Origin: Escherichia phage vB_EcoM_AYO145A
Reading direction: 5' to 3' (one strand)
Sequence record: KR014248
Length of the DNA stretch: 64,000 bases
This document shows, one piece after another, positions 35,510-37,205 of the stretch. The position numbers and the translations under genes were made by a program. Positions within the stretch are counted from its first letter, which is position 1, and every line of letters begins with the position of its first letter. The notes below the pieces were generated by a model. The model saw only the letters and a list, made by a program, of their open reading frames with translations, had not been told where the DNA came from and searched no databases.

Positions 35510-35770
35510 TGGCAGATTTTTTATAAGGCTACTGCCATCCTTCCATACCTTACCTTACCACACCTAACCATACCTAACCAAACTACACCATACAATACCT
35601 TGTTAAAAGACCCTTTTAAAGACCTTTTAAAAAGGTAAGTCTCATTTTAATGTAGTTGAGACTAGCTACCCATACTTTACCTTACCATACCAGACCTCAC
35701 CCCGCCTTACCGCACCAGACAGCACAATGCAGTACAGTACCTTATTAAAAGACCCTGTTTAAAGACATTT
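35510..35770 (-). repeat. composite intergenic repeat unit 1 (pentamer-phased GG/CC tracts, conserved core, covarying hairpin)
   Basis: The plus strand reads runs of NNNCC pentamers (ATACC TTACC TTACC ACACC TAACC ATACC TAACC ...) at 35537-35600 and 35665-35740. The 49-nt core at 35616-35664 is identical to 37038-37086. Hairpin TGGCAG (35510-15)/CTGCCA (35532-37). Confidence 0.85.
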
Positions 35771-35797
35771 TAAAAAGGAGCCTCCGAAGAGGCTACC
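35771..35797 (-). terminator. rho-independent terminator after the two-gene cassette
   Basis: The minus strand reads GTAGCCTC-TTCG-GAGGCTCC-TTTTTA, directly after the stop of 35806..36246. Confidence 0.7.
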
Positions 35798-35805
35798 TAG
35801 TCAAC

Positions 35806-36246
35806 TTAGAAAGGTTTTCTACGTTGCTTGTTAATATTAGCTTTCATAGCAGCTAAATGGTTTTGCTGTTCAATTAGTCGTGAACGTTCTTGATGACTAA
35901 GTGCCATAGTGTTCACATTCTCAATTGCTTGAGTGGCTTGCTTTAAAGCGCGACCAATCTTACCAGACATTTTACGTTTTGCAATAGTTGCTTGATGCTT
36001 AGGTTCGACAACACGATAACCAACACCCATTGAAGCAACCAGATAAATCTTCTCTTCTTTAAGAAGCTTCTCAATAAACTTCTCAAGTCGATTTAAGCGT
36101 GTAAGTGCGTAAGCTTTCATTTCATCTTCGTACTTAACAATGTCACCTTGATAAGTTGGCTTCACAATACCTAAGAAGGTATCCATCTCAGAGTGTGATA
36201 CAGTGTCACCGTAACTAAACTTTGCTGCTAATGCTTTTGTATTCAT
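35806..36246 (-). CDS. hypothetical protein (cassette gene 2)
   Basis: 146 aa with a basic, coiled-coil C-terminus. Followed by a minus-strand terminator. Confidence 0.65.
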   Translation of the reverse strand: MNTKALAAKFSYGDTVSHSEMDTFLGIVKPTYQGDIVKYEDEMKAYALTRLNRLEKFIEKLLKEEKIYLVASMGVGYRVVEPKHQATIAKRKMSGKIGRALKQATQAIENVNTMALSHQERSRLIEQQNHLAAMKANINKQRRKPF

Positions 36247-36248
36247 AA

Positions 36249-36836
36249 TTAAACGTTACCTTCTGAAATAACTTCTACAGAAAAACGACCAAAGCGTGGA
36301 CGCCAATCACCTACACCACAAAGGTTACCAGCATTTTCAAGAACCATCAGAAGTTCCTCTTTGGTGATTTGCTCTTCATCGAACATCAAACCGAACTCTA
36401 CAGACCAGTCACGGAAGATTGGACGGTAGCTCATAACTCGTGCTGTACCAATCTTAACAGACTTAGCATAGATGAAGTCTGGATTCTTAGCAAGTTCTTG
36501 TGGGTTTGCTGGGCAGTTCTTGATAGTCATTGGGAAGACTACATCTGTCAGCATAATGGCTCGGTCAATTACCTTACCAAGTTTGTTGAGTTTTGCACCA
36601 GACTTGATACAAGCCTCAATCATCTCACCGTTCATAACAAAACCTAGCTGCTCATCGTAGTAACAAGAAGTTACCAGTTGGCTTTCTGCTAAGAGCGCAT
36701 AGTCTTCGTCAGTCTTTTTACGTTTACTGGACAGAGACTTGTGATATTTCGTCAGAGGGTTTAATGGGTCTGACAACGTATCGTTATGGCTCAAAAAAGG
36801 ACGAGTACCAGTGATTTTGATATTTAACAGTTTCAT
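36249..36836 (-). CDS. hypothetical protein (cassette gene 1)
   Basis: Track ORF 36249..36851 starts at GTG. The ATG at complement 36834-36836 has GGAG 9 nt upstream. Confidence 0.65.
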
Positions 36837-36911
36837 AGCATTTAGCTCCACACTTTAGTTGATTGTTAAGTTGTTTGTAAAGAACCCTCAACAGAAGACT
36901 CTTTAGAAACT

Positions 36912-37205
36912 TGGTAGATTTTTAACGTGGCTACTACCATCCACCCATACCATACCGAGCCTTACCTTACCAAACCAGACCGCGCCTTACCAAACCAGAC
37001 CAAACATTACTTTACCCTACCTCATTAAAAAACCCTCTTAAAGACCTTTTAAAAAGGTAAGTCTCATTTTAATGTAGTTGAGACTAACTACCCATACCGA
37101 ACCTCACCGCACCATACTACACCTGACACCACCTTACACCACCTTACACCACCGCACCATACCTGACCGAGCTACACATCACTTAAAAACCCTCTTAGAA
37201 GACTC
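36912..37205 (-). repeat. composite intergenic repeat unit 2 (direct repeat of unit 1)
   Basis: Pentamer tracts at 36935-37025 and 37087-37175, including 11 consecutive NNNCC units. Core at 37038-37086. Hairpin TGGTAG (36912-17)/CTACCA (36934-39), which covaries with unit 1. Confidence 0.85.

Follow-up and report, generated by a model that had tools for sequence, protein, structure and literature searches.

VIPR (Viral Interference Programmable Repeat) is a system of RNA-guided DNA silencing that resembles clustered regularly interspaced short palindromic repeats (CRISPR), and was described in a bioRxiv preprint of 25 June 2026 (10.64898/2026.04.26.720920). It contains Vipr, a minimal RAMP protein (Cas7-like), an accessory protein, Vap, and guide RNAs (vrRNAs) of about 100 nt, which show 9-16 YNNGG repeats, with GGY conserved and NN hypervariable, and an invariant 3' tail that forms a pseudoknot in the SUSP1 clade (10.64898/2026.04.26.720920). 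According to the same preprint, the NN dinucleotides pair with double-stranded DNA, every third target base being skipped, and the complex represses transcription; the guides of phage SUSP1 are aimed at the phage's satellite in E. coli genomes, and the evidence from this phage comes from small RNA sequencing, pull-down, GFP repression and plaque assays. A second preprint, which includes the cryo-electron microscopy of the SUSP1 vrRNA1 3' pseudoknot, reports one Vipr protomer per repeat and a filament capped by this pseudoknot (bioRxiv 10.64898/2026.04.26.720927). The stretch analysed here, 64,000 nt of Escherichia phage vB_EcoM_AYO145A (KR014248), hereafter the window, contains two repeat units with an identical 49-nt core on either side of a two-gene cassette, and we assign this region with high confidence to a type II VIPR locus of the SUSP1 clade in a Felixounavirus. 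Positions are those of the whole 64-kb window, and the elements of the cassette are read as the reverse complement because all the flanking open reading frames (ORFs) are on the minus strand.

The SUSP1 clade is defined by more than 90% identity to the SUSP1 Vipr, and Vipr itself as a small (about 20 kDa) single-RRM RAMP protein with a G-loop and a thumb. The window Vipr is identical to that of SUSP1 in 191 of 195 residues (98%) and shows the published GGY-contact residues H17, E71, M72, R138, C173, D177, W178 and R179. The minimal two-gene locus is completed by the adjoining gene, vap1, whose product is identical in 145 of 146 residues (99%) to that of the gene adjoining vipr in SUSP1. Both genes are flanked by four tracts of 11-15 YNNGG repeats, and the invariant 3' pseudoknot is found in four of the four window tails. 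No CRISPR array and no cas genes are present at the locus or in its neighbourhood beyond the RAMP homologue. Vipr and Vap1 show no Pfam match and both of their PHROG families are of unknown function; the Rfam scan of the window at the gathering threshold found only the tRNA cluster, with no match for the repeat units and no CRISPR repeat family.

The assignment uses homology, fold, repeat statistics, structure covariation and the targeting rule, all established here, and takes RNA expression, formation of the ribonucleoprotein and repression from the literature. Given the 98-99% protein identity and the identical tails, vrRNA expression, co-purification with Vipr and repression would also be expected in this phage. 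A Vipr protomer would sit on each pentamer, with GGY sequestered and NN presented, the NN dinucleotides would pair with double-stranded DNA and leave out each third base of the target, and the bound complex would silence transcription. Each vrRNA would end in a pseudoknot capping a trans-acting guide RNA.

Guide tracts, tail pseudoknots and the 49-nt core

The locus contains four vrRNAs of about 90-110 nt, each with 11-15 GGYNN pentamers, in which GGY is conserved and NN hypervariable, followed by the 3' tail. vrRNAs a and b are located upstream of vipr-vap1, and vrRNAs c and d downstream. Period-5 runs of GGT are found at exactly four sites in the 64 kb, two in each intergenic region, and at none in shuffled sequence. 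The preliminary description of this region, made from the sequence alone, had noted that the tracts surrounding the core differ. They do differ, but not at random, as they are period-5 GGT(N)(N) runs; the tracts set aside as divergent are the specificity-bearing GGYNN guide regions of the four vrRNAs, and the alignment of unit 1 with unit 2 shows gap lengths that are multiples of 5. The clade catalogue contains 55 unique vrRNAs from 24 Felixounavirus loci. In these vrRNAs G1, G2 and Y3 are conserved at 85%, 99% and 100%, figures somewhat inflated because the unit parser selects for GGY, and the NN positions show an entropy of 1.9 bits each, with all 16 dinucleotides used, a contrast that the parser does not affect.

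Every tract ends in GG followed by an H-type pseudoknot, composed of stem 1 (S1, 4 bp), 1-2 nt, the 5' arm of stem 2 (S2, 6-7 nt), 1-3 nt, the 3' arm of S1, an A-rich loop of 7-9 nt and the 3' arm of S2. The tails belong to four classes (Table 1). The preliminary description had proposed a comparative alignment with covariation statistics as a check, and the ungapped alignment of 14 tail variants shows standard pairs in 126 of 126 cells and changes on both sides in eight of the nine pairs. The covariation score is 0.71 versus 0.28 in shuffles, and slid partners pair at only 31-42%. Stem 1 of tails b and d covaries too (GTGG:CCAC versus AAGG:CCTT). The class of tails a and c is represented by about 30 copies over related loci, which vary at unpaired positions or in a compensatory manner. 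Both hairpins of the preliminary description are real structural stems under selection, and function at the RNA level, which it had argued from covariation, is supported. In vrRNAs a and c, the hairpin AGTCTCA-12 nt-TGAGACT of the core forms stem 2 of the pseudoknot. The gene-proximal hairpins were confirmed: unit 1 shows TGGCAG/CTGCCA and unit 2 shows TGGTAG/CTACCA, with the compensatory change from C-G to U-A, one of several such changes in the tails, and the A-rich loop in both. These six-bp hairpins are stem 2 of vrRNAs d and b, respectively.

The 49-nt sequence is present twice, exactly as described, at 35616-35664 and 37038-37086; no further copy with up to three mismatches is found in the window, and none in 100 dinucleotide-preserving shuffles. 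It contains the last 27 nt of the pseudoknot (a 34-nt tail) of vrRNAs a and c and the next 22 nt, TACCTTTTTAAAAGGTCTTTAA. These 22 nt are the 5' arm and the loop of a spacer hairpin whose 3' arm is outside the core and enters the first GGT unit of the next guide. The near-palindrome ACCTTTTAAAAAGGT is located in the core, as is the AGTCTCA hairpin, although it does not stand alone: it is better read as part of the 5' arm of this longer hairpin, with its partner just outside the 49-mer. Perfect identity of the two copies had been taken as a sign of selection. This holds for the RNA structure and not as the sole cause, since both window copies carry A at an unpaired L2 position of the pseudoknot, where most relatives show G and A is less common, so that within-genome homogenisation probably contributes alongside selection. 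The differences between the copies just outside the 49-mer are all structure-neutral, being located at loop or bulge positions or changing G-C to G.U or A-U to G.U.

Only two IMG/VR contigs match a 26-mer of the core exactly, because most relatives differ at one unpaired base. Absence of the core elsewhere, which the preliminary description named as the observation that would speak against it, is not what was found: the core is conserved in other phages. It was already annotated in the GenBank record of phage wV8 (2008, EU877232.1) as the 58-bp direct repeat "DR_4", at 59418-59475 and 60811-60868, with no function given. The Felix O1 genome paper lists other repeats and does not describe the core repeat, and the UAB_Phi87 paper contains nothing on it under repeat-related terms.

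Targets of the guides on satellite islands of E. coli

When the locus was searched by BLAST in 5,426 complete E. coli genomes, 152 of them showed vrRNA-like sequence. The island of 2013C-3492, of about 11 kb (L149, 5352-16100), contains a recombinase, a baseplate gene, a tape-measure gene, an HNH endonuclease and small ORFs. Between 14920 and 15130 it shows a unit with its own promoter, a vrRNA, the pseudoknot and a terminator, where no gene is annotated; nor does the island show any vipr-like annotation. The family to which it belongs (L149 and L150-L166) includes islands of about 9-11 kb, with relatives in 567 of the 5,426 genomes; these islands carry a recombinase, an HNH endonuclease, baseplate and tape-measure genes of Felix-like type and, in some cases, a methylase resembling Dam. 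Their sites are wrbA-ymdF, inside a DUF72 gene near yecD-yecN, tonB-yciI, and next to dinB.

The 55 guides were scanned against 18 satellite islands (of the 567 genomes) with skip lengths of 0 to 3; the published threshold is 80%. With a skip of 1, 36 of the 55 guides show an NN match of at least 85%, and 23 of at least 90%, versus 0/55 with skips of 0, 2 and 3. When the order of the units was shuffled, in a control run on 12 islands, only one guide of 55 reached at least 85%. The scan is an independent computational replication of the published 1-nt-skip rule. NN targeting with this skip on the satellite is thus found for the clade; among the window guides it is found for d, for a only with a two-unit bulge, marginally for c and not for b.

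Guide d matches at 20 of 22 NN positions in several satellites, and none of 200 unit-order shuffles is as good. Its target, AATGCTAGTATTGTATATATAAGTTAACAGAAT, is a sigma-70-like promoter (TTGAAA-16-TATAAG) that precedes the leftward operon, with about 30 nt between it and the first gene. Guide a matches the satellite tape-measure gene in two blocks, units 1-6 (12/12) and units 9-15 (10-11/14), which are offset by two units, and hence carries a 10-nt duplication, in which two units (GGTGG TGTAA) are repeated in tandem inside the guide and which may have arisen by replication slippage. The variant of guide a in another phage (L017), without the duplication and with one of the last units different, matches the tape-measure gene at 25 of 26 positions. 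The best satellite match of guide c, in a Dam-like methyltransferase gene, is marginal (21/28, 75%). Gapless scans of the 18 satellites gave at most 63%, 73% and 75% for guides a, b and c, respectively. Exact sub-patterns of 10-12 units from guides a-c show no match in IMG/VR, and no self-target of at least 80% is present in the window. A sub-pattern of guide b gave four matches in GTDB genomes and 14 in JGI metagenomes, which were rejected: they are in unrelated organisms and extend at chance level (1-6/10).

Spacer hairpins and alternative explanations

A long hairpin is located directly 3' of every pseudoknot in these phages (38 unique variants). The downstream array closes with a hairpin of another, terminator-like kind; the others share an inner stem and loop (GTCTT.../...AGGGT) and show three alternative outer stems, which covary. 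RNAalifold analysis of 17 spacer representatives gives 17 pairs, six of them compensatory, and three positions are conserved G.U/U.G wobbles. These wobbles pair only in RNA and on this strand alone, which favours an RNA structure in the sense transcript over a DNA cruciform or protein-binding palindrome. The hairpin of the vrRNA c leader is not chosen in the RNAfold minimum-energy structure in the context tested. In the satellite of L149 the encoded guide shows an ordinary terminator directly after the pseudoknot and no spacer hairpin. The spacer hairpin appears to mark the guide boundary and may be a processing site releasing individual vrRNAs. More tentatively, and with somewhat less than an even chance, it could be a dedicated element of maturation and cassette boundary: a host double-strand RNase, such as RNase III, would cut the precursor, and the same sequence, as DNA, would offer homology for the swap, duplication or loss of guides. 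The main text of neither VIPR preprint discusses vrRNA maturation or the spacer hairpin (10.64898/2026.04.26.720920, 10.64898/2026.04.26.720927).

Some points weigh against the assignment to VIPR. Only guide d among the four window guides exceeds 80% in the 18 sampled satellites. The 14 tail variants make up four classes, so that the cell counts overstate the number of independent compensatory events, although the pattern is still unambiguous. Expression in this phage is taken from SUSP1 data, and the vrRNA c/d pair appears to sit after a terminator. T175 is named as a contact in 10.64898/2026.04.26.720927, and V is found at 175 in both the window and the SUSP1 sequence used, a mismatch that may stem from the numbering or the text of the preprint, where T175 is listed for the Y3 pocket. 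Finally, both defining papers are preprints (10.64898/2026.04.26.720920, 10.64898/2026.04.26.720927).

The preliminary description had read the units as a leader RNA for the genes after the promoter at 37246-37273. A cis-acting structured leader, whether attenuator, riboswitch or operator, would agree with the good sigma-70-like promoter upstream of unit 2, with the location of this unit between the promoter and vipr, and with the covarying structures. It is nevertheless very unlikely, as unit 1 is downstream of vap1, behind a terminator-like hairpin, and the module of tract and pseudoknot also stands alone between its own promoter and terminator in E. coli satellites, with no downstream gene, and as a lone copy in Felix O1. 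Near-identical phages show one to three modules per intergenic region, the NN positions match satellite DNA in trans, and no Rfam family is matched at the gathering threshold. This part of the preliminary description is not supported. An element acting as DNA, such as iterons, a replication origin or an origin prone to R-loops or G-quadruplexes, might be suggested by the site between ligase and nucleotide-metabolism genes, near the DNA polymerase, and by the strong strand asymmetry, with a G-rich sense strand. However, duplex DNA does not form the conserved G.U pairs, which on the opposite strand would become C.A mismatches, the covariation of the pseudoknot is strand-specific, the tracts are always on the coding strand beside the RAMP gene, distant contigs included, and Felix O1 replicates without the cassette, which makes this explanation extremely unlikely. 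Two-tetrad G-quadruplex arrays, primase- or Chi-like sites, an origin or R-loop and a TRAP-like cis regulator were also considered as candidates, and were dropped in view of the tracts beside RAMP homologues in distant contigs and of the VIPR preprint.

The 49-nt identity could also be an accident of recent duplication or gene conversion and nothing more. In its favour, both window copies share the less common A at the unpaired position in L2, the tails, spacers and whole guides are clearly shuffled, and Felix O1 resembles a deletion between modules. Against it, the roughly 30 copies of the tail class vary at unpaired or compensatory positions only, the differences flanking the 49-mer are structure-neutral, and the structure is kept throughout even though the exact 26-mer is found in just two IMG/VR contigs. 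Conversion by itself thus has next to no likelihood, and the copies are best read as the structured tails and spacers of VIPR guides.

Locus layout, distribution and comparison with known systems

The window phage is a Felix O1-like myophage (Felixounavirus) that shares 91-96% identity with many phages, among them VpaE1_ev035, Mushroom and TH10. Along the minus strand, the DNA ligase gene (37281-38417) is followed by intergenic region 2 (IGR2, 36852-37280), vipr, vap1, intergenic region 1 (IGR1, 35419-35805), a gene encoding 127 amino acids and, further on, a helix-turn-helix (HTH) regulator. The ligase gene is on one side of the locus and nucleotide-metabolism genes are on the other, the DNA polymerase gene is nearby, and the flanking genes are small hypothetical or HTH genes. 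The promoter directly after the ligase gene presumably drives the upstream vrRNA pair together with vipr and vap1. The ATG at 36836 is the likelier start of vipr because the database homologues have 195 amino acids and a GGAG Shine-Dalgarno sequence is located 8 nt upstream. The window also contains 24 tRNA genes clustered on the plus strand (3010-7952), which is typical of Felix O1-like phages.

Table 1. Features of the repeat locus in the window and classes of tail pseudoknots (S1 and S2, stems 1 and 2).
Feature	Position	Strand	Remarks
Sigma-70-like promoter	37246..37273	-	TTGACA-16-TATACT; directly after ligase stop; consensus scan 11/12; kept in Felix O1/FO1a
5' hairpin of upstream array	37177..37215	-	CATCACTTAAGAGTCTTCT / AGAGGGTTTTTAAGTGATG; module class of the inter-guide spacer hairpins
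vrRNA a tract	37094..37168	-	15 GGYNN units; NN = CA AT GC GG AA GG AA GG CA GT AT GC GA TC AT
vrRNA a tail, H-type pseudoknot	37060..37093	-	S1 GTAG:CTAC, S2 AGTCTCA:TGAGACT; 27 of 34 nt in core copy 37038-37086
Spacer hairpin vrRNA a/b	37018..37059	-	5' arm and loop (37038-37059) are the core part with the near-palindrome; 3' arm enters unit 1 of tract b; RNAfold -11.8 kcal/mol
vrRNA b tract	36947..37021	-	15 GGYNN units; guide also in three other phage loci, the same or with 1-3 base differences
vrRNA b tail, pseudoknot	36912..36946	-	S1 GTGG:CCAC, S2 TGGTAG:CTACCA; sequence identical to SUSP1 vrRNA1 tail
Hairpin after vrRNA b	36873..36910	-	Spacer module class, other outer stem GTTTCTAAAG/CTTTACAAAC
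vipr	36249..36836	-	195-aa minimal RAMP protein; start in ORF list GTG 36851 (200 aa), ATG 36836 favoured
vap1	35806..36246	-	146-aa VIPR accessory protein
Intrinsic-terminator-like hairpin and T run	35772..35794	-	AGCCTCTTCGGAGGCT; after vap1
Leader before vrRNA c	35740..35778	-	Homologous to spacer module; sequence parallel only
vrRNA c tract	35672..35741	-	14 units; 5' units degenerate (TGT/TGC)
vrRNA c tail, pseudoknot	35638..35671	-	Class of tail a; 27 nt in core copy 35616-35664
Spacer hairpin vrRNA c/d	35596..35637	-	5' arm and loop (35616-35637) are the rest of the core; RNAfold -13.6 kcal/mol
vrRNA d tract	35545..35599	-	11 units; NN = AT AT GT TT TA AT TA GT AA AA AT
vrRNA d tail, pseudoknot	35510..35544	-	S1 AAGG:CCTT, S2 TGGCAG:CTGCCA
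Terminal long hairpin, then T run	35460..35509	-	Likely terminator of downstream array; overlaps weak promoter-like match 35491-35463
Tail class 1			S1 GTAG:CTAC, S2 AGTCTCA:TGAGACT
Tail class 2			S1 GTAG:CTAC, S2 AATCGGA:TYCGATT
Tail class 3			S1 GTGG:CCAC, S2 TGGTAG:CTACCA
Tail class 4			S1 AAGG:CCTT, S2 TGGCAG:CTGCCA

Loci of close Vipr relatives contain one to three tracts per side (17 IMG/VR contigs and phages wV8, tootiki and Mushroom). Among six distant contigs whose Vipr homologue is 37-40% identical, the tracts adjoin the gene in four, and in L027 they are located directly upstream of three consecutive genes. More than 120 IMG/VR contigs, which differ widely in G+C content, show runs of seven GGT at 5-nt spacing. 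GGYNN arrays of 0.5-1.2 kb are present in unrelated viral contigs (L126, 3227-4399; L048, 2212-3406; L038, 4592-5059; L119; L133), and these long arrays show differing punctuation between guides, such as GGCAGTT, GGAATGGTTTAATGAATTTAAT and GGTTTCTCTGGCGAGAAATTTTTAT. The contigs with long arrays presumably represent further types of VIPR, in which the tails or arrays are built differently.

In many Felixounaviruses the match to IGR2 is confined to its first 120 nt or so. Felix O1/FO1a (Salmonella phage FO1a, L167, JF461087.1, 2501-2782) shows the ligase gene, 282 nt and the gp86 homologue, with neither vipr nor vap1, and the cassette is therefore accessory. The 282 nt share the promoter, the 5' hairpin and the terminal hairpin with the window, and contain a single vrRNA of nine units, whose tail is of the TGGCAG class. 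From its arrangement, this orphan guide looks like the product of a deletion between repeat modules, and it might act in trans with the Vipr of a co-infecting relative, as the satellite vrRNAs presumably do. In the clade catalogue the guides, tails and spacers are reshuffled among positions and phages, and the repeated modules look like recombination substrates.

The basic nature of the element is already known from the 2026 preprints, and the locus is essentially identical to the characterised SUSP1 system. Reading of the raw sequence alone had nevertheless singled out the structured handle of guide RNAs whose class was described only very recently, at a time when the standard libraries (Pfam, PHROGs and Rfam) do not yet flag VIPR elements. 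To the description of VIPR are added the replication of the 1-nt skip on satellites, the covariation of the pseudoknot in four classes and a conserved, G.U-rich spacer hairpin that may explain vrRNA maturation. Further additions are the promoter target of guide d, the slipped two-unit duplication of guide a and the orphan guide of Felix O1.

The SUSP1 locus (L019) is the closest described system. It shares with the window the vipr-vap1 pair, the flanking GGYNN vrRNAs, the tail classes, the spacer hairpins and the satellite family as target, and it is located at the same genomic site, between the ligase gene and a gp86-like gene. The window shows two vrRNAs upstream and two downstream, whereas the published layout of SUSP1, which L019 reproduces, shows one upstream and three downstream, and the NN dinucleotides of the guides differ. 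The window also differs from SUSP1 in the internal two-unit duplication of its guide a relative to the satellite target, and in four amino acids of Vipr.

Membership of class 1 CRISPR-Cas was considered and rejected: the locus contains 5-nt units with variable NN instead of 25-40-nt repeats and spacers, and is encoded by a lytic phage. The class 1 filaments (Cas7, Csm3 or Cmr4 on crRNA) go with a repeat-spacer array and cas1/cas2, and the window locus is without both. Their period is 6, with one base flipped, whereas that of VIPR is 5, with three bases sequestered and a non-contiguous guide with a 1-nt skip. Vibrio phage ICP1 directs a complete CRISPR-Cas system of type I-F, which acquires spacers and degrades its target, at the PLE satellite. 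By analogy, both would be RNA-guided systems of a lytic phage aimed at its own parasitic satellite; unlike that of ICP1, VIPR consists of two genes with hard-wired guides, and repression, not cleavage, is what the published evidence shows. TRAP forms a closed ring on the trp leader, where it binds 11 (G/U)AG triplets with 2-3-nt spacers and acts in cis on attenuation or translation. It may be likened to Vipr as a protein oligomer that reads a triplet at a period of about 5 in single-stranded RNA, although the TRAP spacers carry no information and its fold is unrelated to that of Vipr.

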